Part shown: positions 19,614 to 35,462 of the stretch, in pieces
How the letters are laid out: every line of letters begins with the position of its first letter
How positions within the stretch are numbered: the stretch's first letter is position 1
From: an uncultured virus (IMG/VR IMGVR_UViG_3300050138_000133)
Lineage: Duplodnaviria > Heunggongvirae > Uroviricota > Caudoviricetes
Length of the DNA stretch: 64,000 nucleotides
Direction: 5' to 3' (one strand)
Virus record (IMG/VR): IMGVR_UViG_3300050138_000133
Position numbers and translations under genes: made by a program
Notes under the pieces: generated by a model
Told to the model about the DNA's origin: nothing
The model's database searches: none
Seen by the model: the letters and a program-made list of their open reading frames with translations, nothing else

Positions 19614-19614
19614 A

Positions 19615-20313: not shown

Positions 20314-20348
20314 CGAGGCAACGCGGCATAGCCGCAAAGGAGAGAGAA

Positions 20349-20612: not shown

Positions 20613-20656
20613 TTTCAGACGCGTCCCACATCCGCCATCTCAAGGAATATCACGGC

Positions 20657-20881
20657 ATGAGCAATTTATTCCGCCTTCCCATCGCTTCCGAAGATGTTGC
20701 CTTTGAATTTGGCAAAGAGATTTATGGAGCCCGGCTTGATCCATCCGATCCGGAGATCTGTTTTAATTTTCTCTATACGCAATTCCCTGAGCGCTGGCGC
20801 GAAGTCATGGCGAACATGGACGGCGCAATCTATGCGGCCGGTCAAATGTATATCGACGCTGAAATGAGAAGGGCTGGTTGA
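20657..20881 (+). CDS. Hypothetical protein
   Basis: AAGGA RBS, ATG. Confidence 0.6.
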   Translation: MSNLFRLPIASEDVAFEFGKEIYGARLDPSDPEICFNFLYTQFPERWREVMANMDGAIYAAGQMYIDAEMRRAG

Positions 20882-21258: not shown

Positions 21259-21524
21259 GCCGCGCAGGGGGCGCATCAGTAACCATTTGTCCGGAACGCC
21301 GGAACGAACTCGTTCAGATCTATCTGCATCTCGGCTTGGCGGTATCCTCAATGGAATGTCTAGAATCTGGCGTGTGCGCGACATATGCGCGGGTCAAGGC
21401 GGGCGAATTGGGATTGCATTTTCCGCGGCCTAAGAGCGCGCCACCTCCGATCTGGAAGACGAGCCGCACCCATGAGGATCCGCGTTGGGCCAGGGCTATC
21501 TCAATCGGTGCGGTGACGGCGTGA
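21255..21524 (+). CDS. Hypothetical protein
   Basis: Coupled ORF. Confidence 0.6.
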   Translation: MSRAGGASVTICPERRNELVQIYLHLGLAVSSMECLESGVCATYARVKAGELGLHFPRPKSAPPPIWKTSRTHEDPRWARAISIGAVTA

Positions 21525-21882
21525 CAACCCTCTATTTCATCAGCGCGATTTTTATCGCGGTCATGATTATTAACTACTTTGGGCCACCAAGGAGCGGGAG
21601 ACGGGCCATGATCAACGAGCACATGGAATGGTTTAAGCGATTTGCTGCAGCATATATGCGTTGGGTCAATTTTAATTTCGATAGGATTGTTTCAGACGCA
21701 GTGAAGCGAGAACGGCCATGATGACCAACTCTCGTGCCCTGCCAGAGAATGCAACACCCTACGAGGCATCATTCGCGTGGGCCAACTTCCACAAGATTGT
21801 ATTTTACGGCACTGCCCGTTGGCCGTCCTATTCATATTGGATTGTGCCGGGGACAATCACCAATGAAGAACGGATGTAAACC

Positions 21883-22854
21883 ATGACAGCAAAGCCGAGC
21901 GCAGGGGAGTTGGCGGAATTAGCAGCGGCGGTTCGATGGGTCAATTCGGGATGTGATTTGGCGGAAAGCGAAGGATTCCTGTTTAACGAGGCCGCTAACG
22001 CTTATTTCAAAGCTGCGAAAACATCAGATCCGCAACACTGGATGGAGGCGGCATTGTTAGCTCAACAGCACCGTAACGCTTTAACCGCATCCCGTTCCAC
22101 CCCGCAGACTGGCGTGGATGTGAGGGAGGCGCTGGAACCGTTCGATCATATTCTCGATCCATTGTCCTATCTGCGCGGCATTCGTGACGGCAACATTGAT
22201 CCGACAATGGAGAATTTGCGTGGTGCGCTATCTGCGACACTCGCCGTCGCCCCATCGGTGCCGGGAGTAGAGCGAATAACTCCCACGCAACGCGCCGAAC
22301 TCGCTCTATTCGGCAAGGAGAGGGGCACACACGATGGCAATGATGAACGCGATCTATATGCCATCAGTCGTGCGACGTTGGCACGGACAATCGCAGAAGC
22401 CGAACAAGCCATCCTCGCCCTCATAGAGCAGCCAGCGCGCCCTGAGGGGTTCAAACGCCCCGTCGCATTTCGAGTGCCCCGCACCGATCCTGAAACTGCT
22501 GGCGAGACACTTTCAAAAACCGAATGGCGGTTATTTATCGATGAGGAAGCGGCTCGCGAAGCGGCCTACGCTCTTGGGACTGACTATCAGGGTCTTTACG
22601 TTCGTGATGGGAGAGCAAATGCGCCATCTGAATTTGATATTGATCTACTGCGCCAGCGCGACATGCTGAAGCACGAACTCGAATTAGCCCATAATTGGAT
22701 CGCAGAGCATCGGGACGCCGCCCTCATAGAGCAGCCAGACAATGCTGCGTTGTCGTCGCAGCAATGCACCTGTGCCGCATTAGGCAAGAAAAATATACCG
22801 CATGCGCGGAATTGCCCAGCGGTATCGTCGCGAGAACGAAAGGGCGAAGCATGA
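21883..22854 (+). CDS. Mosaic hypothetical protein
   Basis: 323 aa; N-terminus shared with the Lar gene; internal 20-bp repeat pair. Confidence 0.75.
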   Translation: MTAKPSAGELAELAAAVRWVNSGCDLAESEGFLFNEAANAYFKAAKTSDPQHWMEAALLAQQHRNALTASRSTPQTGVDVREALEPFDHILDPLSYLRGIRDGNIDPTMENLRGALSATLAVAPSVPGVERITPTQRAELALFGKERGTHDGNDERDLYAISRATLARTIAEAEQAILALIEQPARPEGFKRPVAFRVPRTDPETAGETLSKTEWRLFIDEEAAREAAYALGTDYQGLYVRDGRANAPSEFDIDLLRQRDMLKHELELAHNWIAEHRDAALIEQPDNAALSSQQCTCAALGKKNIPHARNCPAVSSRERKGEA

Positions 22855-23084
22855 AGCTTACCAATACGCAAATTAAGCATTTGCATGCTTTGACAGACGG
22901 CAAGCGCTCGGCATACCCAAGCTTGCATATGGGTTCTTTGGAGGCCCTTGAGCGGCGCGGTCTTGTGATCGCTCAACGCAGTTTAGGATCAATAGCAATG
23001 CCGCATACGTCAATCCAATGGCTCATCACCCGCACGGGCCGCCTTGCGTTGTCGGCGTGTGAACGCGAGGGAGGGGAGAAGTGA
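22851..23084 (+). CDS. Small winged-helix-like protein
   Basis: MKLTNTQ...L.ALERRGLV...ITRTGR. Confidence 0.7.
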   Translation: MKLTNTQIKHLHALTDGKRSAYPSLHMGSLEALERRGLVIAQRSLGSIAMPHTSIQWLITRTGRLALSACEREGGEK

Positions 23085-23213
23085 GATATTGGAGACTGGT
23101 GCGATGGCTTCGAATATGGCGCGGCATCGAGTGCCCGAGGTGCCGCGCGGATTTTCGGCGCGTCTTGACCTGTGGCTTTCCGGGTTGCCCGCTCCCCGCT
23201 CGGGAGCGCAACG

Positions 23214-23939
23214 ATGGATAACCGGCTGATCCCAGATGAGCAATATGATCGCGTGTTCGGCCAGGACATGTGCGACATCGATTATGAGTTTCTTGGCTTC
23301 ACCGAGATTTATGAATCTCTGGCGGAGATCATACCGAAACACTGGACCGTTGTGGATCTGGGCTGCGCCTACTCGCCGCAATCTTGGTTGTTCAGCGACC
23401 ACAAACTCTATGTTGGCGTCGATTACGGTGTCAAAGAGCGATTTTCGGCCCCAAACACCCGGCACTTCGAGGGGACAATACGAGAGTTTATCGAACGCGG
23501 GTTGACAGAGTTTAACTTAGATCAGACTTTTGCAATCTGCTCTTACGTTCCGCCTTGGCACGATGACAATCGAAAAATTGCACGCGAGAACTTCAAGAAC
23601 GTCTTCGTCTATTATCCGTCGGGTGGGTACGACCCCATACGTTCGTTCTCCCGCGCCAAACGGACACCGCTCGACAACGAGGATGCATCGATGCCGATCT
23701 ATAAATCCCGCCGATCCGGCGTTGATCTACGAAGCCACTCCGACGTTGTGGAATATTTAGAGCGGGACCGTATCCTAAAATTGGCCTTTGAGTGCGGAGC
23801 CGAAGAGTACGGGCCGATGACTTGGAATCTCCATTTCACGCGCGAGGCTTGGAACAAATTCGCCTCCGCATTGTCCCGCAGTGCACGCGAGATCCCCGCT
23901 CCGACGAGTTCTAACGGTGACCGAAAGGACGCGACATGA
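23214..23939 (+). CDS. Putative SAM-dependent methyltransferase-like protein
   Basis: VVDLGCAY...YVGVD resembling motifs I-II, SYVPPW; unrelated C-terminal extension. Confidence 0.5.
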   Translation: MDNRLIPDEQYDRVFGQDMCDIDYEFLGFTEIYESLAEIIPKHWTVVDLGCAYSPQSWLFSDHKLYVGVDYGVKERFSAPNTRHFEGTIREFIERGLTEFNLDQTFAICSYVPPWHDDNRKIARENFKNVFVYYPSGGYDPIRSFSRAKRTPLDNEDASMPIYKSRRSGVDLRSHSDVVEYLERDRILKLAFECGAEEYGPMTWNLHFTREAWNKFASALSRSAREIPAPTSSNGDRKDAT

Positions 23940-24136
23940 GCGAGGATTTAGATTTTCTGATCGCCATAGCGATGAACGCGGCAGGAAAACTTGCCTGTCA
24001 AGCCAGTGCCGCAGGTGATTTGCCGACGATGTATAGCGCCGATCGAGCGTGGCATGAAATGTTTGAGGCAGGCCAAGATTTAGCAAAACGAAGATCGGCC
24101 TTGGCGCTATCCCCCCAGGAGAACGCTGATGGCTGA
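23936..24136 (+). CDS. Hypothetical cassette gene
   Basis: Ends PQENADG within the CCCCAGGAGAACGC repeat. Confidence 0.65.
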   Translation: MSEDLDFLIAIAMNAAGKLACQASAAGDLPTMYSADRAWHEMFEAGQDLAKRRSALALSPQENADG

Positions 24137-24344
24137 GTACATCGAACGCGACTTTAAGGAGGCATACAAGCTCATGAAAGAGCGAGCGCTTGACGCTGAG
24201 CATGACCGTGACGCGCTGGTGAAGGCGCTGGAGGCAATTGCGGCAGAGAATAATCTTGATCCGTCATCGGCGTGTAAAATCGCCCGCGAGGCCCTCGCGA
24301 GTCTTGTGGGAGCGCAGCGACCCCAGGAGAACGCAAATGACTGA
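24129..24344 (+). CDS. Hypothetical cassette gene
   Basis: Repeat supplies AGGAG RBS; ends PQENAND. Confidence 0.7.
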   Translation: MAEYIERDFKEAYKLMKERALDAEHDRDALVKALEAIAAENNLDPSSACKIAREALASLVGAQRPQENAND

Positions 24345-24678
24345 CGCAAAGCTGCTCAAATTCGTGACTGATTTCCGGCGCGGAATCGTGGGGCGTAAGG
24401 GCAGCGATTGCATGTGCTTCGCCATATGTGCCCCGCTGGTAACATTGCTCAATATGAGCGGCGTCGAGAGCATATTGCGAGACGGATGGATCAAATACGA
24501 AATCGGAAGAGGCAACCACTATTGGATTGAACTGGCAGACGGCCGCGTGATCGATCCAACTGCCGACCAATTCAACCGCAGGCTTGGGAAGGCGATGCCG
24601 AAGGTCTATCTCGGATCACCCGATATACTGATCCACGGTTCTGTGGGATCGCAGCAACCCCAGGAGAACGCTAAATGA
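24337..24678 (+). CDS. Small transglutaminase/papain-like fold protein
   Basis: MCFAIC...NHYWIE...VIDPTADQF Cys-His-Asp pattern. Confidence 0.6.
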   Translation: MTDAKLLKFVTDFRRGIVGRKGSDCMCFAICAPLVTLLNMSGVESILRDGWIKYEIGRGNHYWIELADGRVIDPTADQFNRRLGKAMPKVYLGSPDILIHGSVGSQQPQENAK

Positions 24679-24899
24679 CTTACGATCATTGGAAAACAAC
24701 AGATCCCGCCGACGATACTCTTGGCTCTGAACGGGAATGCGAACGCTGCAACGGCAGTGGCCTAATCGGGCTTAGGGCAAGAACTGGCACCTATGTTGCT
24801 CCCGGTCCTATTCCCGAGGATGCGCGCGGGGTGTTCGAGACAATATGCGATGTCTGCCGGGGCAGTGGCGTTGATGTGGGAGGCACGAAAGAGCCATGA
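24675..24899 (+). CDS. DnaJ-type Zn-finger protein
   Basis: CERCNGSG and CDVCRGSG. Confidence 0.75.
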   Translation: MTYDHWKTTDPADDTLGSERECERCNGSGLIGLRARTGTYVAPGPIPEDARGVFETICDVCRGSGVDVGGTKEP

Positions 24900-25099
24900 C
24901 AGCAAAGCCGAGCGCGGGGGAGTTGCTGCCATGTCCGTTTTGCGGATCGGAGCCTGAAACTGTTGGATCTGGCGAAGATCAGCGCGGACTGATGATCCAG
25001 TGCATCGCGGCTGGTTGGGTCAATCCACACGTTAGTTATTACGGCCACGCTGATGCAATAAAGGCCTGGAACTCCCGTTCGGGAGGAAAGCCACAATGA
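24896..25099 (+). CDS. lar: Lar-family restriction alleviation protein
   Basis: ELLPCPFCG...IQC...AIKAWNSR (second CxxC degenerate). Confidence 0.75.
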   Translation: MTAKPSAGELLPCPFCGSEPETVGSGEDQRGLMIQCIAAGWVNPHVSYYGHADAIKAWNSRSGGKPQ

Positions 25100-25362
25100 A
25101 TCAATGGCAACCAATGATTGAACGCTGCAACGCAATAAATCGCAAAATCAACGAACTTTTGGCGCGGCGGGTGAATGTAGGGCCGCCCTATGCCGCCCTC
25201 ACTGTCCGCGGGATCGATGACCTTGAGACGATCTTATTCGCCGTTCGTTATGCGGCAAATAGTTTGGGTGAATGGAAGGATGCCGCGCCCAAACCTAAAT
25301 CACTGATTCAAGAAATAGAAGAAAAAACGGGCAGGTCCGCTTTCCCTCCGGCGGAACGTTGA
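25096..25362 (+). CDS. Hypothetical protein
   Basis: Coupled; ends PPAER*. Confidence 0.6.
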   Translation: MNQWQPMIERCNAINRKINELLARRVNVGPPYAALTVRGIDDLETILFAVRYAANSLGEWKDAAPKPKSLIQEIEEKTGRSAFPPAER

Positions 25363-25365
25363 ACC

Positions 25366-25587
25366 ATGCAGTCTAGAATTGAGCAGATGTTGAAATCCCA
25401 GGCGCACATTCGCAGGCTGTACCGCGATGGTTTTATTGATATGGCGCTGTGCGAATATGATGTCACGATTGCCCCAGAGTTGGGAGCCGTTGATCCACGA
25501 TTAAGCCGCTGCGCGCGGCGACTATCCAAAAGTTTCATCGCAATGGTGGATCAAGATATTCCTCCGGCGGAACGGGGGACCGAATGA
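25366..25587 (+). CDS. Hypothetical protein
   Basis: Ends PPAERGTE*. Confidence 0.55.
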   Translation: MQSRIEQMLKSQAHIRRLYRDGFIDMALCEYDVTIAPELGAVDPRLSRCARRLSKSFIAMVDQDIPPAERGTE

Positions 25588-25820
25588 GTGACGAGTCGGC
25601 AGAATACCAAGGTGCGGTGCAAGACCTTGAGGTGGCTTACAAGGCCGGTGTCAAGGCGTTTGCAGAATGGTTCGCGCGCGAATGGCTGATGACGCGCGAT
25701 GAGTGGGTTAAATCCTATCAAGAGCCACCGCCGAGTGACGAATGGTTTAAGGGGCAAAATGCTGGCGTTGAAAGTGTGATTGGTGCGCTGGATTCGTTCT
25801 TCGGAGACTTTTATTCATGA
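25584..25820 (+). CDS. Hypothetical protein
   Basis: Coupled ORF. Confidence 0.65.
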   Translation: MSDESAEYQGAVQDLEVAYKAGVKAFAEWFAREWLMTRDEWVKSYQEPPPSDEWFKGQNAGVESVIGALDSFFGDFYS

Positions 25821-25927
25821 CCATGCCAGCCGCCGATACGCTAGAGCGCGAGAAGGACAAGCTGTATCTGACCGATGCAGAACTCGTCAGGCGCCTCGGT
25901 GTGCCGGAAAAGACGTTGCTGCTATGA
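25817..25927 (+). pseudogene. Truncated excisionase-like HTH fragment, 36 aa
   Basis: LYLTDAELVRRLGVPEKTLLL*; stops right after the HTH. Confidence 0.5.
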
Positions 25928-26805
25928 TCGAAGATTCTGACACCATAACCCTGAAGGATGCCGCCCAGCACTTCGGGTTTTCGGTCTATACGCTTCGCAC
26001 GGAAGCGGATAACGGTCGCTTGGTAAAGGCGAGCGCCCGCGACATCGGTTACAACATCACCAATCTGCTCAAATGGTGGGGTGATAAGACCGTGGCAAAT
26101 ATATCGGTCAAGAGCTGCCGAGCCTATATCGAGACCAAGACAAAGCCAGCGGCAGGCGCGGATTTGAAGGTTCTCAAGGGTGCCGTGATTTACTGGCACA
26201 AGGAATATGGCCCGCTTGATGCGGTGCCTGAATTTGAATTGCCGCCGCAGAATCCGCCGAAAGAGCGTTGGCTTACGCGAGAGGAAGCGGCGCGGCTCCT
26301 GTGGGCCGCCCGTCGCTACCAGCACATGCGCCGACTCATCCTGCTTGGCCTCTATACCGGATCGCGCCCCGGCGTTATCCTTGCGCTGCGCTGGGATCAA
26401 ATCGACCTCAAGGCCGAGATCATGACGCGGACGCCGCACGGAAGATCGCAGGACAAAAAGAAACGCGCGCCAAAGGTGAAGATCGGCCGGCGCCTTCTCA
26501 CGCATTTGAAGCGGTGGAAGCGTCTCGACAAATCAGAGACGTTGGTTTGCCATTTCACCGATCGCTGGCATCCGGGCTCGCGCGCCGTGGAGGATCCACA
26601 CGGCGCATGGGCGAAGATCATCAGGGCGGCGAAGCTGAAGGGCGTTACGCGTCACACGCTACGTCACACCCGAGCGACATGGATGGCTCAATCCGGCGTA
26701 CCGCTCTGGGAGGCCGCAGGCTTCCTTGGGATGACCGTCAAGACGCTGGAAAGGGTCTACGCGCACCATGATCCCAGCAATCAAGAACGGGCCGCAAATA
26801 TCTAA
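25924..26805 (+). CDS. int: Tyrosine recombinase/integrase with excisionase-like HTH at its N-terminus
   Basis: LYTGSRPG, HTLRHTRATW, AGFLGMT..TLERVYAH catalytic motifs; N-terminal TITLKDAAQHFGFSVYTLRTEADNGRL. Confidence 0.92.
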   Translation: MIEDSDTITLKDAAQHFGFSVYTLRTEADNGRLVKASARDIGYNITNLLKWWGDKTVANISVKSCRAYIETKTKPAAGADLKVLKGAVIYWHKEYGPLDAVPEFELPPQNPPKERWLTREEAARLLWAARRYQHMRRLILLGLYTGSRPGVILALRWDQIDLKAEIMTRTPHGRSQDKKKRAPKVKIGRRLLTHLKRWKRLDKSETLVCHFTDRWHPGSRAVEDPHGAWAKIIRAAKLKGVTRHTLRHTRATWMAQSGVPLWEAAGFLGMTVKTLERVYAHHDPSNQERAANI

Positions 26806-26945
26806 TTCTGTGCCATGGCACAGTTATTCACTTGTTTTATGTAACAGTTTCAAGACCGGCTTGCTTCCAGGCCAGAATAATGAGACACTTAAGTTGTTGA
26901 TTTTTCATGTTGAACATTGAGGTTTACACCATGAACGGAACGGGA
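26806..26945. other. Candidate attP region
   Basis: AT-rich, directly after int; palindrome CTGTGCCATGGCACAG (26808-26823); TAAGTTGTTGATTTT; GTTTACACC. Confidence 0.4.
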
Positions 26946-27473
26946 AACATGCAAGATATTAGTGCCGAAACTGTGCCGCCCGGCTGGACTTATTTCGTCC
27001 GGGTAGGCGCGTCGATCAAGATCGGATCGGCAACCAACTTTAAAAAACGGCTGGATGCCCTCCAAACGGCCCACGAAAACCCGATCGAGGTACTTGCCGT
27101 TGTTCCCGCCTCTGTAGCTGACGAATTCTCGGTCCACCAGCGTTTTGCCGCCCTCCGCACAAGGGGCGAATGGTTCCGGGCGGATCGCGAGCTTTTGGAT
27201 TTCATAGAGAACATCAAGGAAGACGCGAAAGATATTCCGGGCTCTCCGGCGTGGCCCGAGTCGGCCAAACAGGACGGGGCTTTCGATATCGTGAGCCGGC
27301 AGCTCCATGCCCTTCGTCGCGCCCGTCACGGAAGCCCGGCCGGACGCCGCGCGAGCAACCTCATAGGTATGATTGCCAATTACCGATCTGCCACAGACGA
27401 AGATAGGCGCGGTGCGCTTAAGAAAAATATGATGGACCAAATGACCGAATTACGCGAATTGATGAGTGGCTGA
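26931..27473 (+). CDS. GIY-YIG-like (T5orf172/MUG113) protein
   Basis: TYFVR...IKIGSA...RL..LQT...E..VH.RF..LR.RGEWF; start uncertain. Confidence 0.85.
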   Translation: MNGTGNMQDISAETVPPGWTYFVRVGASIKIGSATNFKKRLDALQTAHENPIEVLAVVPASVADEFSVHQRFAALRTRGEWFRADRELLDFIENIKEDAKDIPGSPAWPESAKQDGAFDIVSRQLHALRRARHGSPAGRRASNLIGMIANYRSATDEDRRGALKKNMMDQMTELRELMSG

Positions 27474-27531
27474 CAAAAATCGTCAGTCACTCCTAACCTT
27501 AAACGCCGCGTGAGGCGGCAGGGAGATGACG

Positions 27532-27780
27532 ATGGCGAAATACCGAAAGAAGCCAATTGTGATCGAGGCTATCCAATTTACGGCCGAGGGAAATTCGTTT
27601 GATCTTGGCGGACTGCTTTCCGAGGGCGGCCACATCGATTTCAATGACGGCCATCTCCTGATCCATACACTAGAGGGGGTGATGCGCGCCGATCTAAACG
27701 ACTGGATCATTCGCGGTGTGGAGGGCGAGTTATATCCGTGCAAACCCGGCATCTTTGCCGCGTCGTATGATCCGATCTGA
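27532..27780 (+). CDS. Conserved phage protein, probable Acb4-like cyclic-nucleotide sponge
   Basis: KYRKKPIVIEAIQF...IHTLEG.M.A...DWIIRGVEGELYPCKP.IF..SY; family link recalled, not searched. Confidence 0.55.
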   Translation: MAKYRKKPIVIEAIQFTAEGNSFDLGGLLSEGGHIDFNDGHLLIHTLEGVMRADLNDWIIRGVEGELYPCKPGIFAASYDPI

Positions 27781-27810
27781 CATTCAATGCAGAACACTGA
27801 GGAGAAGAAG

Positions 27811-28146
27811 ATGACCGACGCCACGATTAACACGCCAAATCCCGCTGACTTCTCGCGCAATGACAAGCCGGGGGAATATACCGCCGAGATCGAGGTGCGG
27901 GGTAGAGTCTCAATAGCCATTAAGGCCGAGAGCCAAGAGGATGCACAGCGTCAGGCAGAGGCTGAATTGGAGAAAATGGAGGAGGAAGGATACGTCGAGA
28001 TTGACGACATCCATAAGGTCGATTTGCGGCACGTATCGAAGGATCGCCCAATGTATCGCGTCACAAGGGAAGGCAAGCCAATGCAGGTTTCTCACCTTCA
28101 ACCCGGCGACCTTCCGCGCGATCCTGATCCTGACCGTGGCTTTTGA
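27811..28146 (+). CDS. Hypothetical protein
   Basis: GAGGAG RBS, ATG. Confidence 0.75.
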   Translation: MTDATINTPNPADFSRNDKPGEYTAEIEVRGRVSIAIKAESQEDAQRQAEAELEKMEEEGYVEIDDIHKVDLRHVSKDRPMYRVTREGKPMQVSHLQPGDLPRDPDPDRGF

Positions 28147-28180
28147 ATCTCACCTACGCGATGAATGCAGAGGAATGCTG

Positions 28181-28423
28181 ATGCCTGACTTAATTGACCC
28201 TGAACTTCGGATCATGCGTTACCTATCTGATAAGATGGAAGCTACTGGCGCAATGATCGGAAAGGCCGTAGCGCCAGGACGCGCAAAATCAGACCGAGGC
28301 TATGCAATGATCGGCTGCGATCACGCCCGCCGTATGGAGCTAGAGGGAATGCTTCTCTACCTGCCAGAGTTGCGCGCATGGCGGTTATCGGCAGCAGGAC
28401 GCGCAGTATTGGCCGATCTTTAG
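28181..28423 (+). CDS. Small winged-helix-like protein
   Basis: GAGGA RBS; ...MELEGML...WRLSAAGR. Confidence 0.65.
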   Translation: MPDLIDPELRIMRYLSDKMEATGAMIGKAVAPGRAKSDRGYAMIGCDHARRMELEGMLLYLPELRAWRLSAAGRAVLADL

Positions 28424-28448
28424 TAGAACATGCAGAGGAACGCGAGAC

Positions 28449-28595
28449 ATGAGCGAGAGAGAGCGTGCAATCCAAGCCCTTAAATTCGTGAAGGTCGATA
28501 CGAAGGGCGGCTTCCTGACCGATCTCAGCGTGGCAATGATATTGATCGAACTGGAACGGCGCGGGTTAAAGTTCGATAAATTCAGTCATCAGTAG
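28449..28595 (+). CDS. Microgene, 48 aa
   Basis: GAGGA RBS; MSERERAIQALKF... Confidence 0.55.
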   Translation: MSERERAIQALKFVKVDTKGGFLTDLSVAMILIELERRGLKFDKFSHQ

Positions 28596-28634
28596 CGGCC
28601 GTGCCGCGTTGTCGAATGGAAAACGTTGAACCCC

Positions 28635-28790
28635 ATGCAAAAAGAGATTGAATCGTCTACCGAACAAATCACGCCGCACCTGCGATGGTACAACCTAGCT
28701 TTACAGCAGGCATGGAGTATAACGCGCTATCGTGGCGGGGAGCCATACGCGATGGAAACCGAATGGCGGCCCGTACCCATACATTCCTGA
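28635..28790 (+). CDS. Microgene, 51 aa
   Basis: LRW...LQQAW...EWRPVP motif; ends TCC TGA in the repeat. Confidence 0.65.
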   Translation: MQKEIESSTEQITPHLRWYNLALQQAWSITRYRGGEPYAMETEWRPVPIHS

Positions 28791-28822
28791 CCGACACATC
28801 AGAGAGCGAATGGAGAAAGCAA

Positions 28823-29062
28823 GTGAACCTCAACATTGAGATACGCACGAACGGGATAAGACCGGATAACGTAGTCGCCGAATGGGAAACCAAGACAACC
28901 GGCGGCGCGGGGGACCGCGAGGTGCTACTCAGCGCATGGTCGCGGACGGAGATCGGAGCGCGCCAGAAGCTATTTGAGCAGGCGAAGGCAATGCGCGATG
29001 AGCTAAACCAGGCCATCGAGAAAATGATAGAAGAACTTTGCGCCGGGATTGGGCGTTCCTGA
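28823..29062 (+). CDS. Hypothetical cassette gene, 79 aa
   Basis: GGAG RBS from the repeat, GTG start, ends TCC TGA. Confidence 0.7.
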   Translation: MNLNIEIRTNGIRPDNVVAEWETKTTGGAGDREVLLSAWSRTEIGARQKLFEQAKAMRDELNQAIEKMIEELCAGIGRS

Positions 29063-29094
29063 CCGACACACCCGAGAGCGAATGGAGCACGCTG

Positions 29095-29196
29095 ATGGAT
29101 TTCGCGCTATGGTCAATTTCAGTATTTGGGCTTGGCATATGTGTCGGTCTTGGGATTGGCCTAGCTGATGCGTCACGCCGACATCGACGATCCTGA
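29095..29196 (+). CDS. Single-TM micropeptide, 33 aa
   Basis: GGAG RBS from the repeat; hydrophobic stretch plus RRHRRS; ends TCC TGA. Confidence 0.55.
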   Translation: MDFALWSISVFGLGICVGLGIGLADASRRHRRS

Positions 29197-29214
29197 CCGA
29201 CACGTGAGGACACC

Positions 29215-29355
29215 ATGAGAGACGTTCTGCTGCTCGGATTAGCGGGCGTATCTCCGTTCATGGTCGTCACATCGCTTTATCGCTGGACAAGCGGGATCAC
29301 CTTATTCTGGTATGGAATGTGGTTGATATCGTGGATAGTGCTTGTTGCTGGTTAG
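29215..29355 (+). CDS. Membrane micropeptide, 46 aa
   Basis: GAGGA RBS; two hydrophobic segments. Confidence 0.55.
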   Translation: MRDVLLLGLAGVSPFMVVTSLYRWTSGITLFWYGMWLISWIVLVAG

Positions 29356-29389
29356 GTATCCGCACACATGACCGAGAGACGAGGAAGCC

Positions 29390-29575
29390 ATGGTAATGAT
29401 GGAAAACGGCAAGATGCTCGACATGATAAAAAGCCACACATGCGGAAAATGTTTCACTTTTTTTTATATCGAAGCTGTTTTCGGAGACGGTACGAGTGAG
29501 CCGCTAAACAGCGAATGTCCCGCCTGTAAAAGCCCGCTGAACTACTTACCAAAAGTGCAGCTAGAAGGCCGATAG
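29390..29575 (+). CDS. Zn-ribbon protein
   Basis: CGKC...CPAC; GAGGA RBS. Confidence 0.65.
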   Translation: MVMMENGKMLDMIKSHTCGKCFTFFYIEAVFGDGTSEPLNSECPACKSPLNYLPKVQLEGR

Positions 29576-29735
29576 GTAGAACTCCTGACCGAGGATCGCC
29601 AGATGGATGGGTTTAAGAAAACATAGTTTAATCAACCCAGAATTGAACTCTAAAGGGAAAGATAAACTGATGCTCGACATCGATCCAGCTTTCCTGAGCA
29701 GCCCAAACAACCGTGACCGAGGAAAGTGAGAGATT

Positions 29736-30074
29736 ATGACCTATTTTTATATATCGTTTGCCACAGACGAGGGATTCCGTGGCGGGACTGTGGTTCAGGC
29801 GGATGACGCGAAAGGCGCCGTCATGGAGGCCACCACGCGCGGCCTAAACCCAGGTGGCGAGGCGGCCATCATGGAGGTCCCACCCGAGGCCGAATTCGAG
29901 CCAGATATACTAGCGATGGTCAATAAGCTGCTTGGGCGCGACGAGATCGAGCAGCAGGGCGGGCAGCGCCTTGGCGATTTGTCGGAAGATATGCAAGAGG
30001 CCGTCCAAGGAGCCGCCGGCTTCGTTTGCGACGACTGCAACCCCGTGACGTTCATCTCGCCTCCGCGTTCTTGA
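29736..30074 (+). CDS. Hypothetical protein
   Basis: YFYISFA...FRGGTVV...GLNPGGE; last gene of the rightward operon. Confidence 0.75.
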   Translation: MTYFYISFATDEGFRGGTVVQADDAKGAVMEATTRGLNPGGEAAIMEVPPEAEFEPDILAMVNKLLGRDEIEQQGGQRLGDLSEDMQEAVQGAAGFVCDDCNPVTFISPPRS

Positions 30075-30080
30075 GCAGGC

Positions 30081-30129
30081 AAAAAAAGAGCCGGTCACCA
30101 GTAGCCCTTTCGGGTTCGGTAACCGGCTC
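30081..30129 (-). terminator. Rho-independent terminator of the late operon
   Basis: Minus strand GAGCCGGTTACC...GGTGACCGGCTC followed by T7, between convergent operons. Confidence 0.8.
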
Positions 30130-30222
30130 CAAGTCTGGGGAGGCGTAAAACAGGACCGAGCATGGTCCTCGCTATTGCCGGTCAAGGAAATGCCCGGCAA
30201 CCTTTGAACGGCCCGTAGGCCG
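30081..30222 (-). ncRNA. Candidate alphaproteobacterial anti-SD sRNA (MmgR/suhB-like)
   Basis: Hairpins, then CCTCCCCAGACTTGG immediately before the terminator. Confidence 0.45.
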
Positions 30223-30224
30223 AA

Positions 30225-30701
30225 TTAAGCAGCCGGAGCAGCGACCGGAGGCGTAGCAGCCGGATCAGTGACCACTACAGGCGCGATGACAGGCGGAACT
30301 ATGGTCGCGAGAACTGCCGGAGCGACCACAACGGGGGCCGGGACAGTAGTTGCAGCCGGGATGGAAGCGGTCAGAGCCGCAGCATCCGTTGCCAGCGATC
30401 CGGTGATTGTGTTGATGTTTGCGACCGCCTGGGTGACGGCTGCGGTGATGGCGGGATCGGCAGCAGCGGGAATTGCAGCCAGTGCAGCCACGAGGGCAAC
30501 CGTTTCAGCAACAACCGCAGTATGCTCGGCAGCGAATCCGCTGGCGAGGGAAGTCACGGCATTGTTGAGATCGTCAGATAAAGCCATATTGGTATCCAGT
30601 CTTTCTAGAATGAGCGCGCCTTGCTGTTGTAACGCAACTACCCACGGCGGCGTCTCGGAAGACCATGGATCGAAGTGGTGTTGATGGTGAAAATTTATCA
30701 T
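30225..30701 (-). CDS. Ala/Pro-rich hypothetical protein
   Basis: GAGGA RBS; end of lysis cassette. Confidence 0.75.
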   Translation of the reverse strand: MINFHHQHHFDPWSSETPPWVVALQQQGALILERLDTNMALSDDLNNAVTSLASGFAAEHTAVVAETVALVAALAAIPAAADPAITAAVTQAVANINTITGSLATDAAALTASIPAATTVPAPVVVAPAVLATIVPPVIAPVVVTDPAATPPVAAPAA

Positions 30702-30744
30702 TTATTCCTCATAGCGATATTGAATCCGTCGCTTACTAACTTTC

Positions 30745-30975
30745 TCACCAGGGACTCCGATAGCTCCCAGCGTTCTTCACCTCTAGTTGAGCGCGATGGG
30801 GATATTCCTTGATCGGAATTTTCGTTGGTGCTGTAATCTCAAAGAAGTGAGATAGACGCCTTCGGCGGAAATAAACTGCTCGCTCGGTACAGTTTAGAAT
30901 ATGCCCCGTTTCGGTTGCCCCGTGTTTCCTGAATAGATTGATAAATTCTTCATCAGAACATTTGGGGCTTGCCAT
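30745..30975 (-). pseudogene. HTH-like protein, possibly truncated N-terminus of a phage metallophosphoesterase gene
   Basis: CSDEEFINLF...TERAVYFRRRRL...RAQLEVKN then abrupt end. Confidence 0.4.
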
Positions 30976-30984
30976 TAGGCTGCT

Positions 30985-31311
30985 CTATACTTTTTCAAAA
31001 GTTACGCTGACAACGCCAGCGCTAAGAAAGCCAAGGACACGAGCCGCGCCGCGCGACAAGTCGATACATCGCCCGGTCCATTTGGCCGGACCCCGGTCAT
31101 TTACGCGCACGACAACCGAACGGCCCCTGTAGTTCACGCGTAAATTTGTGCCAAACGGATAGCCCCAAATGGCGGCTGTAAGGCCATCAGGCTTGAAGCG
31201 TTCGCCATTCGCGGTGAGGCGGCCTTCATGGTAGAATGACGCCCTGCACGTCGTGGCATCGGCTCTGGCAGGCAATAAAAAGACGAGGGCGGCTAGGGCT
31301 ATAGCTTTCAC
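30985..31311 (-). CDS. rlpA: RlpA-like (DPBB) lytic transglycosylase with signal peptide
   Basis: ASFY...TANGERF...LTAA...PFGT.LRV...SVVVRVNDRGP...IDLSRGAA. Confidence 0.92.
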   Translation of the reverse strand: MKAIALAALVFLLPARADATTCRASFYHEGRLTANGERFKPDGLTAAIWGYPFGTNLRVNYRGRSVVVRVNDRGPAKWTGRCIDLSRGAARVLGFLSAGVVSVTFEKV

Positions 31312-31550
31312 TATCTCAACCTCAGGCACTTCTTTGCTTCGGCGATTTGTTGTTCGCTGGCGCCTGCGGCTCGGGCTGCCTTCTCCGCGTCCTTCACTCC
31401 GATGGACGAGACGATTTCGCGGATCTGTTGGCAGTAGGCTGAGATCGGAGCTTCGGCGGCCGGCGCGTGGTCTACGCCAAAACAGAAAAACAAGGCGATG
31501 ACGCACGCGAGCCAGATGACGATGACGGTGGTGCCACGACTGTTGATCAT
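31311..31550 (-). CDS. Small secreted/membrane protein
   Basis: N-terminal TM, two Cys. Confidence 0.65.
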   Translation of the reverse strand: MINSRGTTVIVIWLACVIALFFCFGVDHAPAAEAPISAYCQQIREIVSSIGVKDAEKAARAAGASEQQIAEAKKCLRLR

Positions 31551-31559
31551 TGGACTCCT

Positions 31560-31781
31560 TCAGGTATTTTCGTATCGATCAAGTTGGTTGCAGGGGCCGT
31601 AGCCCTCTGCCCAACCGAAGTGCATCACGCCGGAAGCATCCTTGCCGGCGCCCCGAAAGGTGATGAAGCAATAATCAGTCTGGACGAGTCGGCTCTTCGG
31701 CGTCGTATCTGCCGCCATAGCGATAAGCAGACAGATCGTGACGAGCAGGATGAATATCCGAATCCTGAGATTTGCGGACAT
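31560..31781 (-). CDS. Small secreted/membrane protein
   Basis: N-terminal TM, two Cys. Confidence 0.6.
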   Translation of the reverse strand: MSANLRIRIFILLVTICLLIAMAADTTPKSRLVQTDYCFITFRGAGKDASGVMHFGWAEGYGPCNQLDRYENT

Positions 31782-31788
31782 GATTAGG

Positions 31789-32217
31789 TCAGTGCCTTAT
31801 CAGAACCGCGAAAACGCCAATGATTGCGCCTATTGACGCTAGACTTGAAATAACATTGAAAATTACAGCCGCGCTGGTTCCGATGCCCTGGTGTACGCCG
31901 CCGGATGTCGCTAACGTCTGTTCCATTTTATCGAGACGCACGGCAATCGATCTTGTTCGTTCGTCTGCTGCGATTTCTGCTTTTTGCGATGCCTTTTCAG
32001 CCGCCGTCATAGCGATTGAAACGGCGTCTTTCGCGGACTTATTCTCGGCAGTGAAAAACCGCTCAACGCCCTGAATCCGTTCAGCAAGGCCCGTTTCTAC
32101 TGAATGTATTTTACCTGATAGGTTTGACTCGACACTTTCGATTTTATCCGTGAGATGCTTTTCTAACGCATCGAACGTTCGGAAGCGCCCGACGTCTTGA
32201 TATTCTTGAGTTGTCAT
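31789..32217 (-). CDS. Coiled-coil protein with C-terminal TM (holin/antiholin-like)
   Basis: Lysis cassette position and topology. Confidence 0.65.
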   Translation of the reverse strand: MTTQEYQDVGRFRTFDALEKHLTDKIESVESNLSGKIHSVETGLAERIQGVERFFTAENKSAKDAVSIAMTAAEKASQKAEIAADERTRSIAVRLDKMEQTLATSGGVHQGIGTSAAVIFNVISSLASIGAIIGVFAVLIRH

Positions 32218-32588
32218 TATGCGCGCTTGCGAAAGAATAGATTTAGCCAGCGTTGCTTGAATGTCTGCTCGGCTGGCGTAACAACCACTGGCGGGACAAC
32301 CGTGACAACTGGCGCAGCGACAATAGCGGGGGCGATAATAACTGGCTTTGCGATAACGTGCGGCACAGCGCGTTCGCGAAAGAGCTTGCGATGCAAGCGG
32401 TGCTTTAACGTCTGCTTGGCAATTGGAGCAGGCGCAGCGACAATAACGGGCTTCGCGATCATGACAGCAGGTGGGGCTTTCGTGATCTGATGGTACGGCA
32501 CTCCCGCAGTATGTTCTGCTTGCGGAGCATGAGCGCAGGCGCCTAGCAGCAACGCAACCACGCTAATGCTTGATAATACTCGCAACAT
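32217..32588 (-). CDS. Lipoprotein (spanin candidate) with internal duplication
   Basis: Lipobox LGAC; IAKPVI...QT.K.R...FR.RA occurs twice. Confidence 0.6.
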   Translation of the reverse strand: MLRVLSSISVVALLLGACAHAPQAEHTAGVPYHQITKAPPAVMIAKPVIVAAPAPIAKQTLKHRLHRKLFRERAVPHVIAKPVIIAPAIVAAPVVTVVPPVVVTPAEQTFKQRWLNLFFRKRA

Positions 32589-32964
32589 TTTGGAACATCC
32601 TTTTCCCGTAGTACCATGAGATAATTAAGCCGACCCAGACGCCAACGGCACCGCTGATCGGATCGGTTGAACCGCCTGTTAACGAGCCAAGCACCTTGTC
32701 CCAGATGATGACCTTCGCCATGTAAATTAGGACGATATAGAATCCGAGTTTTTCAGGTTCGAGCGGATGTCCCACTTCGGCAATCTTTAGCTGCGTGGTT
32801 GCCTGAATTTCGGCGGTCTGTGCGGCTATCTCTTTGCCGGCGAGTGTGGCGGCGGTCATGTTGTCCGTCGTCGTGGCCGTGAGATGGGCCTGATACGCGC
32901 CTAGCATTGCTTTGGCGACGGGGCCGCCAAGGAATTTGAAGATGAGGGATGCTAAAGCAAACAT
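32563..32964 (-). CDS. 3TM holin-like protein
   Basis: KVIIWDKVLG..TDP...IISWYYGKR. Confidence 0.7.
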   Translation of the reverse strand: MFALASLIFKFLGGPVAKAMLGAYQAHLTATTTDNMTAATLAGKEIAAQTAEIQATTQLKIAEVGHPLEPEKLGFYIVLIYMAKVIIWDKVLGSLTGGSTDPISGAVGVWVGLIISWYYGKRMFQNVASIIKH

Positions 32965-33194
32965 CAGCCAGTCGCCTTAGATCCAACCGGCCCGGTGGTG
33001 ACGATCCGCAAGATCACGCCGAGCACAGCGTTGCAGACAAGAAAGACCGCAACGTACTTTGCCGGGATCACGGGCGTAACATCGATCGTGGAAAATTGCG
33101 TGTAGACGTAAAGCGCACCGGCCGGAAGGCCAACCACTGCGTTGGCTATGATGGTTTTATAGCCCTTGAGGCGAAGTCGGAGCGCGGCGAACAT
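32964..33194 (-). CDS. Holin-like 2-TM protein
   Basis: LKGYKTII...ILRIVTTGPVG. Confidence 0.7.
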   Translation of the reverse strand: MFAALRLRLKGYKTIIANAVVGLPAGALYVYTQFSTIDVTPVIPAKYVAVFLVCNAVLGVILRIVTTGPVGSKATG

Positions 33195-33209
33195 TTCAAT
33201 TTTCCTGAG

Positions 33210-33794
33210 TTATCGCGCCAGCAAGGCGCATACGGTTCGCGACGGCACAATCGTTATAAAATTCGAGTTGCCAATCCCGCCGACGTTTATACCGACCACA
33301 TAACCGTAACGGTCAATAGCGGGGCCTCCACTCATTCCGGGGCCAAGCGTTCCGTCAACAACATAGGCTTCTTTCCAATCTCCAACTTTAGCTATTTGCG
33401 ATTTTGCTAAATGTCCCCAGCTAGTCAGCAGATCAAGTGTGTACGGATTGCCTTCGAACGATAATAGTTCGCCTTGATCTAGATAACGACACGACAACGA
33501 ACGCGACTTAACGTTTTTGAAATCGCTGATCCTCAACAATGCAACGTCGTAGGTTTTGTTTGCCCACATTAATTCGGTATTGTGAACAATACCGTTGGTG
33601 TCCTTGATGCTAATATGGGCTTCATCGTCAACCACATGGAAGGCTGTAAGAACCAGGCCGTTACCGATATGGACGCCAGAACCGTGGCCATCGCCTAAAT
33701 CGACGTATAGAGTCGAAGATGCAAGTTTGCTATGGTCGACACATCCACAAAGACATAGGCACAACATTGCTGCAGCAACTAACGATTTGCTCAT
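33210..33794 (-). CDS. Trypsin-like serine protease, probable lipoprotein
   Basis: GSGV...LTAFHVV (His), DVALL (Asp), GMSGGP (Ser); LCGC lipobox-like. Confidence 0.9.
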   Translation of the reverse strand: MSKSLVAAAMLCLCLCGCVDHSKLASSTLYVDLGDGHGSGVHIGNGLVLTAFHVVDDEAHISIKDTNGIVHNTELMWANKTYDVALLRISDFKNVKSRSLSCRYLDQGELLSFEGNPYTLDLLTSWGHLAKSQIAKVGDWKEAYVVDGTLGPGMSGGPAIDRYGYVVGINVGGIGNSNFITIVPSRTVCALLAR

Positions 33795-33893
33795 GTTAGA
33801 GACCGCCCCGCTCGTCATTTTGCAGCCACCAGCTAATTACGGTCAACACCGCCATACCGGCCGCCACGAATGCCATCTCGCAACACAGAAAGA

Positions 33894-34061
33894 TCAGAGT
33901 TTCTTAACTGCTACAGTGAGAGCATCCGCCTGTGCGTGAAGTTTTGCAGAGAGTGCATTGGCTCCGATGACAAGCTTCTGTATGGATGGTTTTAGAAACC
34001 ACACCAGGGCTCCCCCAGCGATGAAAACAATGATGTCCCCTAAGAAAGTAAGAGCGAACAT
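33894..34061 (-). CDS. Small membrane protein
   Basis: AAGGA RBS; one TM. Confidence 0.6.
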   Translation of the reverse strand: MFALTFLGDIIVFIAGGALVWFLKPSIQKLVIGANALSAKLHAQADALTVAVKKL

Positions 34062-34065
34062 GGCG

Positions 34066-34905
34066 TTATATTCCTTTTGGTTTGAAGATTGAGAAGACGG
34101 TAGACATAACAGACGCGAAGCTTGGCGCTGGTGGTTCCGGGCCGCGGTTAGGTTCGTTGTCGGGTTCACGAAGATCGGTCGGCGCGGGCTTGGTGTCGCC
34201 TGCGGTGATCGAAGGGATATCAGGAGGCGCCGGGTTTGGAGTTGTCGGCAGGATTACGATTGGACCGGGCGTCACCGAAACATTCGCGGCCTTCCATTTG
34301 GAGAGCCACACCTTGCGTTCGCTCAATCCGACGTAGCCGCCGTTCAATTTGCGTGTGACGCCGATAATATCATCGGCAATTGCGTAGGGCAGGCAGCCGC
34401 AGATGATGAAATCGGCCACGCCGCATTCGAGGAAATTCTTGGGATCATTTACGAGTTCGGGATTATTGAGCAGATCAAGTTTTGTCGCGCGAGCGAGCAA
34501 CCCATAGCCTTCTCGTCCGGTTGTCTGTGACGCGCCCCTGCCCCGGAAATTCCAGCCATCGTCAGAACCTGTCACGTTCCCCATTCGCCCGTCGTATACA
34601 TTATTCGCCAGAGCCTTCGGATTGCCAGCGAACGGCTCTGCGCTCGCCATCGTCGGGAAACGCGACGGCCACACCTGCATCATTCGGCTGGCCGTATAGT
34701 TGAGGTTTTCAACGACCTCATGCCCGGCCGCACATTCATGACTGATCTGAGCCATGACGTGAACAATCAGGAGCGGGGTGTTGATGCCGTACTTCTGAAA
34801 GACCGGGCCGGCGGTTTCGATCATCCCGGCCCGCAGCCCCAGAATCTTCTCGTCTCCATTCGGCCACAGCCGCGTCAAAGCCTCGCCAAAAGACGATAGG
34901 GGCAT
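34066..34905 (-). CDS. Endolysin, glycoside hydrolase family 19
   Basis: AQISHE...ENLNY...DGWNFRGRGASQTTGREGY...TRKLNGG..GL.ER. Confidence 0.93.
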   Translation of the reverse strand: MPLSSFGEALTRLWPNGDEKILGLRAGMIETAGPVFQKYGINTPLLIVHVMAQISHECAAGHEVVENLNYTASRMMQVWPSRFPTMASAEPFAGNPKALANNVYDGRMGNVTGSDDGWNFRGRGASQTTGREGYGLLARATKLDLLNNPELVNDPKNFLECGVADFIICGCLPYAIADDIIGVTRKLNGGYVGLSERKVWLSKWKAANVSVTPGPIVILPTTPNPAPPDIPSITAGDTKPAPTDLREPDNEPNRGPEPPAPSFASVMSTVFSIFKPKGI

Positions 34906-34929
34906 GGGAGTTCCTTGGTGGATTGGTGA

Positions 34930-35064
34930 TTAGCGGCGCTTGAAGATAAGCCAGCAAACAAATGCTAACAGGATCAATACCGCGGGAAATGTTGCGACGG
35001 TAAGCCATTCATTGATGGCCCACCAATGCGCACGCTCGACGGCGGTAAACGGTTGTTCGCCCAT
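34930..35064 (-). CDS. Small TM peptide
   Basis: Hydrophobic stretch plus KRR, just upstream of the endolysin. Confidence 0.45.
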   Translation of the reverse strand: MGEQPFTAVERAHWWAINEWLTVATFPAVLILLAFVCWLIFKRR

Positions 35065-35066
35065 CG

Positions 35067-35462
35067 TTAGATCGTAACGCCGAGTGCCGCAGCGATCGCA
35101 GTCATGCGCGGTTGGCCAAGCACCGTAACCAGCGCAGCCCAACCCGCAAGAAAGCGCGCGTTGGTCACGATCATCGGGTCTTTCTGCGCCGTCATCGCCT
35201 GCCACAGCAGCCAAAACTGAACATTGCCAGCGACTGCGGCTTGGATTGCCGTGGCATCGGCGGTTGTGAATTGTGCCATCAGGTCTTGCGACAAGATTTG
35301 TGCAGGCGGCGCGGGAGGTGCGACATACGGATCGGGGACACCACCAACGGCAAGCCAAACATTATAGGCCGCGCGGTCGCGGTTGGCAGGATCGTTAGGG
35401 ATGCACGCGCCATCAATGGTACGGATGATGGTTTCGGTTGCTGTGAGTTGATAATTAGACAT
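35067..35462 (-). CDS. Tail fibre assembly-like protein
   Basis: IIRTIDGACIPNDPANRD...WLAVGGVPDPY. Confidence 0.8.
   Translation of the reverse strand: MSNYQLTATETIIRTIDGACIPNDPANRDRAAYNVWLAVGGVPDPYVAPPAPPAQILSQDLMAQFTTADATAIQAAVAGNVQFWLLWQAMTAQKDPMIVTNARFLAGWAALVTVLGQPRMTAIAAALGVTI

Follow-up and report, generated by a model that had tools for sequence, protein, structure and literature searches.

The distal end of an accessory operon in an uncultured virus (IMG/VR record IMGVR_UViG_3300050138_000133; Caudoviricetes) raises the question of why a succession of small, unrelated genes should be separated by nearly identical sequences that contain the stop codon of one gene and the ribosome-binding site (RBS) of the next. 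The stretch analyzed here, referred to as the window, is 64,000 nucleotides (nt) long, and its plus-strand accessory block of ~31 mostly small genes (18394 to 30074) forms an 11.7-kb operon. At the distal end of this operon, a 13-nt sequence, TCCTGACCGACAC, occurs three times within 420 bp as part of a junction repeat designated family C. The operon contains at least five distinct junction-repeat families, each set in a run of neighbouring junctions, and this arrangement of families in runs across one operon is the main new result.

The junction repeat of the distal array

The three exact copies of TCCTGACCGACAC, at 28785-28797, 29057-29069, and 29191-29203, all lie on the plus strand, and no further exact copy occurs on either strand of the window. 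With up to two mismatches allowed, six matches are found where 1.28 are expected, a number reached by none of 100 shuffled sequences. Copies 1 and 2 belong to a longer repeat (28784-28815 and 29056-29087) that is identical at 30 of 32 positions (93.75%) and 89% identical over 37 nt; on the 5′ side, the similarity breaks off sharply at (T/A)TCC. Each exact copy provides the last serine codon (TCC) and the in-frame TGA of a small open reading frame (ORF), ending the ORFs at 28635-28790 (or from TTG 28626), 28823-29062, and 29095-29196. The Shine–Dalgarno (SD) sequence is a separate element downstream of the 13-mer, with GGAG placed 7 nt ahead of GTG 28823 and of ATG 29095 and GAGGA placed 5 nt ahead of ATG 29215; the distance from the end of the 13-mer to the next start is 25, 25, and 11 nt, respectively. 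A preliminary description of the locus had claimed that three small ORFs end with TCC TGA followed by CCGACAC, an RBS, and the next start, that two copies match at 30 of 32 bp, and that the repeat supplies both the upstream stop and the downstream RBS, and all of this is confirmed, exactly so at 28785, 29057, and 29191.

When the successive plus-strand junctions (J0 to J6) are compared, the full repeat is present at J1 (28784-28822; TTCC-TGA-CCGACAC..GAGAGCGAATGGAG, then 7 nt and GTG) and at J2 (29056-29094). The junctions on either side are hybrids: J0 (28613-28634), ahead of ORF1, has the 3′ half of the repeat only (CGAATGGA..TTGAACC; repeat family D5, aligned by eye with J1 and J2), and J3 (29190-29214) has the 5′ half (ATCC-TGA-CCGACAC), followed by GAGGA; both look like the edges of insertion or exchange events. 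CGAATGGA itself is found at 28613, 28807, and 29079. Three weaker copies, of the form TGACCGAG, follow at the next three junctions (29369, 29586, and 29714). J4 (29356-29389; TCC..ACATGACCGAGAGACGAGGAAGCC-ATG) is degenerate and agrees with J3 at 18 of 24 positions from TGACCGA on, as counted by eye; J5 (29576-29606) carries TCCTGACCGAGGA, with the upstream stop, a TAG, 11 nt earlier; and J6 (29711-29735; CCGTGACCGAGGAAAGTGAGAGATT-ATG) is again degenerate. The TGACCGA core is present at six consecutive junctions, 35, 35, 21, 21, 21 or 17, and 22 nt from the next start. It occurs 17 times on the plus strand and 3 times on the minus strand of the window, and six of the plus-strand copies fall within 28788-29714 (927 nt). 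Of five degenerate TGACCG copies reported earlier, the three at 29369, 29586, and 29714 do lie at gene junctions; the two placed at 28128 and 28513 truly start at 28131 and 28516 and are inside coding sequence, the former at the 3′ end of a 111-aa gene and the latter as the codons F-L-T-D of a 48-aa ORF.

The repeat scan detected no inverted repeat inside any junction. As single-stranded DNA, J1 to J3 (both strands for J1 and J2, the plus strand for J3) fold at −1.8 to −5.5 kcal/mol, no better than shuffled sequences (z −0.71 to +1.04), and the junction RNAs likewise fold no better than shuffles (z −1.77 to +1.39); no Rfam family lies within the array. Between 17000 and 31000, four promoter-like sites were found, all on the minus strand and below the shuffle mean of 8.7, and since neither a promoter-like nor a terminator-like site was found on the plus strand of this interval, the plus-strand block reads as one polycistronic operon. 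Its end lies at an inverted repeat (30088-30129) between converging operons, a probable terminator hairpin identified in the repeat scan. A sub-threshold Rfam match to mmgR, an alphaproteobacterial small RNA (sRNA), overlaps this inverted repeat outside the array (30074-30162, minus strand; 24 bits, where the gathering score is 41; E 0.072). The order of the array is no assembly artefact, since it is matched by an independent metagenome contig with 100% identity over 26026-30772, and a contig from run X8 that spans 28738-29288 has no differences from the window.

The genes between these junctions are unrelated, as the preliminary description had held: in an all-against-all BLASTP comparison of 29 plus-strand proteins, the array ORFs share no similarity at E ≤ 1, and their GC content ranges from 42% to 60%. 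ORF1 (28635-28790; 51 aa, or 54 aa from TTG 28626) ends with IHS-TGA and is an orphan, with no homologue among the 5.8 billion proteins searched, and possibly no gene. ORF2 (28823-29062; 79 aa) is a conserved small protein, the structure model of which is of low confidence (predicted local distance difference test 63.6; predicted template modelling score 0.40). Membrane micropeptides and a zinc ribbon had been proposed as cargo, and two strongly hydrophobic micropeptides and a protein with CxxC motifs are indeed present. ORF3 (29095-29196; 33 aa) contains one hydrophobic segment (Kyte–Doolittle 17-residue maximum 2.21) and an RRHRRS tail, ORF4 (29215-29355; 46 aa) is a hydrophobic orphan (maximum 1.99) for which the homologue search was empty, and ORF5 (29390-29575; 61 aa) is a conserved zinc-ribbon-like protein with two CxxC motifs and one homologue (P0007; 72% identity; E 1e-19). 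ORF6 (29607-29729; 40 aa) is doubtful, and a 7-codon ORF from ATG 29603 competes for its place with better RBS spacing. The last gene of the operon, ORF7 (29736-30074; 112 aa; phrog_13485), shows 33-35% identity to phiCbK-like phages. It ends with CGT TCT TGA (RS-stop, 30060-30074), which resembles the CGT TCC TGA end of ORF2 and may be a decayed further junction or a chance similarity. A 3-periodic Markov coding score was ambiguous for the shortest ORFs, ORF1 included, and offered no choice between gene models.

A public gene call for ORF2 (P0001) starts at an upstream ATG, and the repeat was considered as the coding N-terminus, FLTDT[SP]ESEW, of the next gene. This candidate was rejected, as the four ORF2 homologues (71-88% identity) begin with MNRIEIRT or MPEIEVRF level with GTG 28823; in two longer homologue calls, the N-terminal extensions are unrelated and the upstream sequence has no similarity to the window junction. 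Since the homologues begin at GTG 28823 and not at the upstream ATGs, the repeat is non-coding 5′ of ORF2, and since all four end with RS, the TCC-TGA end belongs to the ORF2 family itself. Reassignment of TGA was also rejected, as TGA terminates 16 of the 33 confident genes.

Repeat families in runs and the mosaic accessory region

The remaining families are likewise found on the plus strand at the borders of operon genes. Family A (24113-24671) consists of three copies of CCCCAGGAGAACGC at 24113, 24321, and 24658, before the starts at 24129, 24337, and 24675; two of the copies extend to 36 of 39 nt, and the upstream proteins share a PQENA tail. Family F (25345-25574) consists of two copies of CCTCCGGCGGAACG at 25345 and 25561, before the starts at 25366 and 25584, with PPAER as the tail of the upstream proteins. 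Family B (27787-28443) comprises two copies of ATGCAGAGGAAYGC at 28165 and 28430 and a degenerate copy at 27787, before 28181, 28449, and 27811, respectively, and family C comprises three copies and three degenerate ones. The two copies of family D are identical at 31 of 32 positions and contain the start and first 10 codons of two proteins that share no further similarity: copy 1 (21881-21912; MTAKPSAGEL) belongs to a 323-aa protein, and copy 2 (24894-24925) belongs to a Lar-like 67-aa protein (PF14354).

The run pattern was quantified from 46-nt segments at the 31 plus-strand starts, with pairs of junctions scored for common exact words of at least 10 nt. Such words are shared by 7 of 30 adjacent pairs in the plus-strand operon, versus 7 of 435 non-adjacent pairs, and none of 2000 permutations of gene order reached seven adjacent pairs. 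The structural operon has none among 31 adjacent or 465 non-adjacent pairs, and the minus-strand early genes have 1 among 26 adjacent pairs, with the caveat that the minus-strand starts used were those of the longest ORFs. The interval 19400-30100 contains 12 exact repeat pairs of at least 12 nt with a separation of 60-1500 nt, whereas 50 shuffled sequences averaged 0.8 and never exceeded 3. Repeat pairs thus number 11.2 per 10 kb in this interval, compared with 4.0 for the early and 2.1 for the structural region.

The accessory region is a mosaic at the resolution of single genes. The 111-aa gene (27811-28146) is common to five IMG/VR phages as the sole gene in common, and in three of the five the DNA identity (~82-83%) stops at the gene borders and the flanks are unrelated. 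In one of these relatives, L123, the family-B 13-mer ATGCAGAGGAACG is located 17 nt upstream of the 111-aa homologue; in the window, it stands ahead of two other genes. L123 also contains one junction of the form TCT-TGA-CCGAG..GAGGA..ATG, in which the TGA is a stop codon. However, this is the single match of the pattern TCYTGACCGAS in the four related phage records (188 kb), a reversed control pattern also matches once, and the L123 junction is therefore weak evidence. Two T5orf172/MUG113 (GIY-YIG-like) genes (8602-9048, minus strand; 26907-27473, plus strand) and several HNH endonuclease genes (54-422, 10784-11509, and 20878-21258) are possible homing elements that could add to the mosaicism.

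A search for the 32-bp repeat in IMG/VR, suggested in the preliminary description, did not lead to related arrays: the 14-mer TTCCTGACCGACAC matched 117 single-copy loci, none of which extends the repeat (at best, 8 of 16 further positions agree), and most of these encode FLTDT and are chance matches. A 28-nt pattern of the repeat gave no match, and family C was not found beyond this phage in the records searched. TCCTGACCGACAC is absent from the additional 7.7 kb of G001, a record of the same phage (99.9% identity) that spans window positions 1-21211 only, and self-comparison of L123 to L127 revealed no junction repeats inside those relatives. Searches through ORF7 and through the ORF2 alignment yielded no relatives, the integrase led to three loci (27-40% identity), and the 111-aa gene led to five. 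Among the matches listed in a metagenome search for relatives, only L128 appeared, with 100% identity; this locus is identical to the window over 19130-37716 except for two added segments. Degenerate ORF2 and ORF5 patterns had no matches in viral and genome collections, the GenBank phage collection had no DNA match save for an 84-aa gene, and the presumed terminase had no tblastn match. The array-bearing contigs found are identical copies of the phage only.

Proposed gene shuffling at the junctions and competing explanations

From the sequence comparisons, it appears moderately probable that portable stop/RBS/start junctions, copies of which join the small, mostly orphan genes of the array, mark and promote the shuffling of genes by homologous recombination. 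Each junction starts with the final codon of the upstream gene and its TGA, followed by a short spacer (CCGACAC..), an SD sequence, and the next start, and its present-day role is simply to terminate one cistron and initiate the next. The near-identity of neighbouring junctions would be a product of history: homologous or short-homology recombination at the junction would have inserted genes or copied the junction itself. A circle or donor fragment with one junction (J), recombining with a resident junction, would yield J-gene-J, which is the exact topology around ORF2, and the direct repeats left over could serve as substrates for further deletion, duplication, or exchange of the gene between them. 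The repeats, their position between stop, RBS, and start, the unrelated cargo, and the clustering of several families in runs are seen directly; recombination at the junctions may have made the repeats, and may go on today.

Gene shuffling is favoured because the 30-of-32 repeat and the three exact 13-mers span exactly the distance from stop to RBS, because common words are concentrated at adjacent junctions and close repeat pairs exceed the shuffled expectation, and because the cargo is unrelated and heterogeneous in GC content. It is favoured further because the 111-aa gene is shared alone, with identity that ends at the gene borders, because ATGCAGAGGAACG borders different genes in L123 and in the window, because the ORF2 homologues keep their RS-stop end, two of them with a different upstream sequence, and because published analogues, discussed below, recombine. 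Moreover, since five unrelated families are each limited to neighbouring junctions, local copying is simpler than five regulators.

Several points weigh against this reading. Contigs of four further runs are colinear and identical, with no recombination joints, in a search made on assemblies, which lose rare variants, and with some bins uncovered. Variable cassette content would be expected to appear among relatives, and the array is seen in identical phage copies only. The C motif is all but confined to this phage, TCYTGACCGAS matching no more often than its control in the four related records, and the PHROG and Pfam scans recognised no single-strand-annealing recombinase among the window proteins. 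ORF1, ORF4, and ORF6, all of them orphans, may prove not to be real genes, and the near-constant distance from TGACCGA to the start could equally be a sign of a translational function.

A narrower form of gene shuffling is possible, if rather unlikely, in which the junction runs are scars of serial, recombinase-independent capture of promoterless gene circles carrying one stop/SD/start junction. Each captured circle would integrate by homologous recombination into an operon junction, the gene would be expressed at once, and each capture would add one junction. Such serial capture would amount to a translation-level analogue of the integron in a temperate alphaproteobacterial phage, a comparison that we put forward with equal tentativeness.

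Among the explanations without recombination, the one that survives best is that TGACCGA(C/G) is a start-associated translation element, bound in the mRNA by a factor of either the phage or the host (protein, sRNA, or ribosomal RNA) or tuning termination-reinitiation, which would co-regulate small accessory genes in the manner of the start-associated sequences (SAS) of Cluster K phages. This explanation is rather improbable and remains live mainly on the nearly fixed start distance; the presence of the motif at six consecutive junctions, its asymmetry, its restriction to the plus strand, its place in the non-structural part of the genome, and the L123 junction with its TGA stop also speak for it. 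SAS are 13-bp asymmetric repeats in which the upstream stop is sometimes included; each genome has 11-19 of them, at a distance of 3-7 bp from the start codon (PMC3203893). Against this, only three exact copies of the motif exist here, inside 420 bp, with none elsewhere in the 64 kb, and the L123 match is at the chance level. The junction RNAs have no consistent structure, common descent would also yield fixed spacing, and the four other families, each in its own run of the same operon, are not explained by a single regulon.

A DNA operator or roadblock, through which a phage DNA-binding protein would silence or time the accessory operon, is distinctly unlikely. The motif is repeated and strongly over-represented, and the phage encodes DNA-binding regulators (three GcrA-like proteins, a GapR-like protein, a DnaA-C helix-turn-helix (HTH) protein, and an HTH protein). 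However, the sites are non-palindromic, on one strand, irregularly spaced (272, 134, 175, 217, and 128 bp), and inside an operon, the plus strand of which has no promoter-like site in 17000-31000; the edges of the motif match stop codons and RBSs exactly, and the sequence, read directly, contains neither GANTC nor another known alphaproteobacterial box.

Recoding, in which UCC-UGA-C would be read through or frameshifted to give extended or fused products such as ORF3-ORF4, is very improbable. UGA followed by C is a weak termination context, and this C is present in all three exact copies; ORF3 and ORF4 share a frame with no stop between them, downstream of the ORF1 and ORF2 UGA codons, the first stop in the same frame overlaps the following start codon (GTGA, TGATG), and the −1 frame is open through J1 and J2 into the next gene. 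Nevertheless, the three copies would lead to three different outcomes without a common product, the −1 frame open at both junctions is a single shared sequence and counts as one observation, and there is neither a slippery heptamer nor a downstream hairpin. The ORF2 homologues start at the annotated start, without the FLTDTSESEW extension, and TGA is a normal stop in this genome, occurring as TGAC in 3 of the 16 confident genes that it terminates.

The preliminary description had favoured an integron-like array, in which an upstream tyrosine recombinase captures and excises cassettes at the repeat. The recombinase (25924-26805, plus strand) is an ordinary phage integrase and not of the IntI type: it matches PF00589 only in Pfam and phrog_1 integrase (E 4e-38), and no NCBIfam model reaches its cut-off (best, 40.2 bits against 220). 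In the window, a deletion has joined an upstream HTH gene to the integrase core, the first 34 HTH codons being in frame with the core and ~75 N-terminal integrase residues missing; at 26026, L128 has 290 bp more (L128 6898-7186) and encodes the HTH protein and the intact, 335-aa integrase in two genes. The HTH gene is excisionase-like, the ends of the 290-bp deletion share 1-2 nt of microhomology, and contigs of runs X8 and X9 diverge from the window at 26026, consistent with the longer form. Phage attP sites usually lie directly behind the integrase gene. Although a tyrosine recombinase does lie 1.8 kb upstream in the same operon and promoterless ORFs do have a repeat between them, the integron-like reading is the least credible of all and is set aside, as the junctions contain no attC-like imperfect palindrome or hairpin, the recombinase is co-directional with the array and five ORFs away from its first junction, no divergent intI/attI/Pc layout exists, the AT-rich gap at 26806-26906 directly behind the integrase gene is where attP would be expected, the array is the same in L128 with the intact integrase as in the window with the truncated one, and four other unrelated repeat families behave alike.

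Phage context and comparison with known systems

The window is a temperate-type, alphaproteobacterial-type siphophage from peat metagenomes, its siphovirus nature having been assigned by PHROG and Pfam scans of the window proteins. An alphaproteobacterial host is suggested by the GcrA and GapR content, given the known nature of both families. According to the same scans, tail, tape-measure, head, and lysis genes run on the minus strand from ~64000 down to 30225, and replication and regulatory genes run on the minus strand from ~17700 to 1. This early set includes a replication initiator, a NusG-like antiterminator, the GapR-like protein, the DnaA-C HTH protein, an MT-A70 methylase, and the three GcrA-like proteins. 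The region 27400-30200 is present in 17 listed runs from 14 studies of peat, permafrost, or soil metagenomes; no listed RNA run contains it, and this was not used as evidence.

Outside the array, the gene next to the 111-aa gene is of separate interest. The preliminary description had called an upstream gene Acb4-like, and this identification is not supported: Acb4 corresponds to PF13876 (PMC11722364), and neither the 84-aa protein (27526-27780) nor the 111-aa protein matches this family even at E ≤ 10, nor do they have a match at E ≤ 1 in a sequence search of the PDB. The 84-aa protein belongs to phrog_419 and has no Pfam family. At the DNA level, phages of Gordonia, Mycobacterium, Microbacterium, and Curtobacterium (55 records) have genes ~74-84% identical to its own, and conservation of this degree across phyla is unusually high. 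One of its structural-neighbour clusters in the ESM Atlas is a 242-aa fusion, and an Acb2/Tad1 hairpin domain is found in 71% of the members of that cluster.

Compared with L128, the window lacks 1342 bp at 30772 (L128 11934-13274), and with them two or three small ORFs and all but a 76-aa remnant (ORF 30745-30975, minus strand) of a 309-aa protein; the ends share ~4 nt of microhomology, and a contig of run X11 has unlike sequence from 30772 on. At the head of the plus-strand operon, a tandem repeat with a 27/54-nt period (18817-19160) encodes a collagen-like segment in a DUF7666 protein (18394-19329). Among the minus-strand genes, a 45-nt repeat with 89% identity (4010-4054 and 6652-6696) takes in the RBS, the start, and the opening codons of two genes, one for the NusG-like antiterminator and the other for a 527-aa Mrr-domain protein, and an exact 29-nt repeat (4315-4343 and 6945-6973) lies ~290 nt upstream of the same two genes; together, the paired repeats look like a duplicated leader or regulatory region.

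Whether phages gain and exchange small orphan genes by illegitimate recombination or through conserved linkers is still a matter of debate. The operon described here is a compact natural example, in which 7 of 30 neighbouring junctions are alike, five unrelated families are present, and none is found in the structural operon. If the junctions recombine, this would explain how promoterless micro-genes enter an operon without loss of expression, and the 32-bp unit would be a ready-made test substrate; if they do not, the array is simply a recently rearranged accessory region.

With integron attC arrays, the array shares promoterless ORFs, a repeat, and a tyrosine recombinase nearby, and it differs from them in the palindrome, integrase type, and gene layout discussed above. 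It resembles the SAS and extended SAS (ESAS) of Cluster K in that a 13-bp asymmetric motif, always in the same orientation, stands among the non-structural genes before members of different families, sometimes with the upstream stop codon inside. In SAS, however, the SD sequence is inside the motif and the motif is conserved across subclusters (PMC3203893), whereas the 13-mer of the window lies upstream of a separate SD sequence and is unconserved in the available relatives.

A closer likeness is found in the promoter early stem-loops (PeSLs) of T4-type phages. ORFans with PeSLs on both sides form mini-circles there and explain indels that distinguish phi1 from RB49, and the authors of that study themselves liken PeSLs to integrons (PMC2839356). 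In both cases, repeated regulatory cassettes surround small ORFans in a plastic region, ORF1 and ORF4 being the orphans so flanked here, and the J-gene-J topology is that expected from the excision and insertion of PeSL mini-circles. PeSLs are ~100 bp long and combine a sigma-70 promoter with a stem-loop terminator, whereas the repeats of the window are 13-39 bp long, have neither promoter nor hairpin, and act at the level of translation through stop, SD, and start; moreover, circles and indels have been demonstrated for PeSLs, whereas none was seen here in the contigs of the four runs.

Short conserved boundary, or linker, sequences at phage gene junctions have been proposed as sites of homologous recombination that generate mosaicism, and recombination at ~50-bp repeats and at “short conserved boundary sequences” is described for mycobacteriophages in the paper that summarises this proposal (PMC3029335). 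As in those phages, a short sequence lies exactly at the borders of unrelated genes in a mosaic accessory region, and family B is also found at a gene border in another phage, L123. In contrast to those sequences, five families occur here in one operon, each in a run of neighbours, and the focal family C was not found in the other phages searched. The array is of a known kind, that of conserved gene-boundary repeats in a plastic region of a phage genome, among which its unusually clear multi-family run structure stands out.

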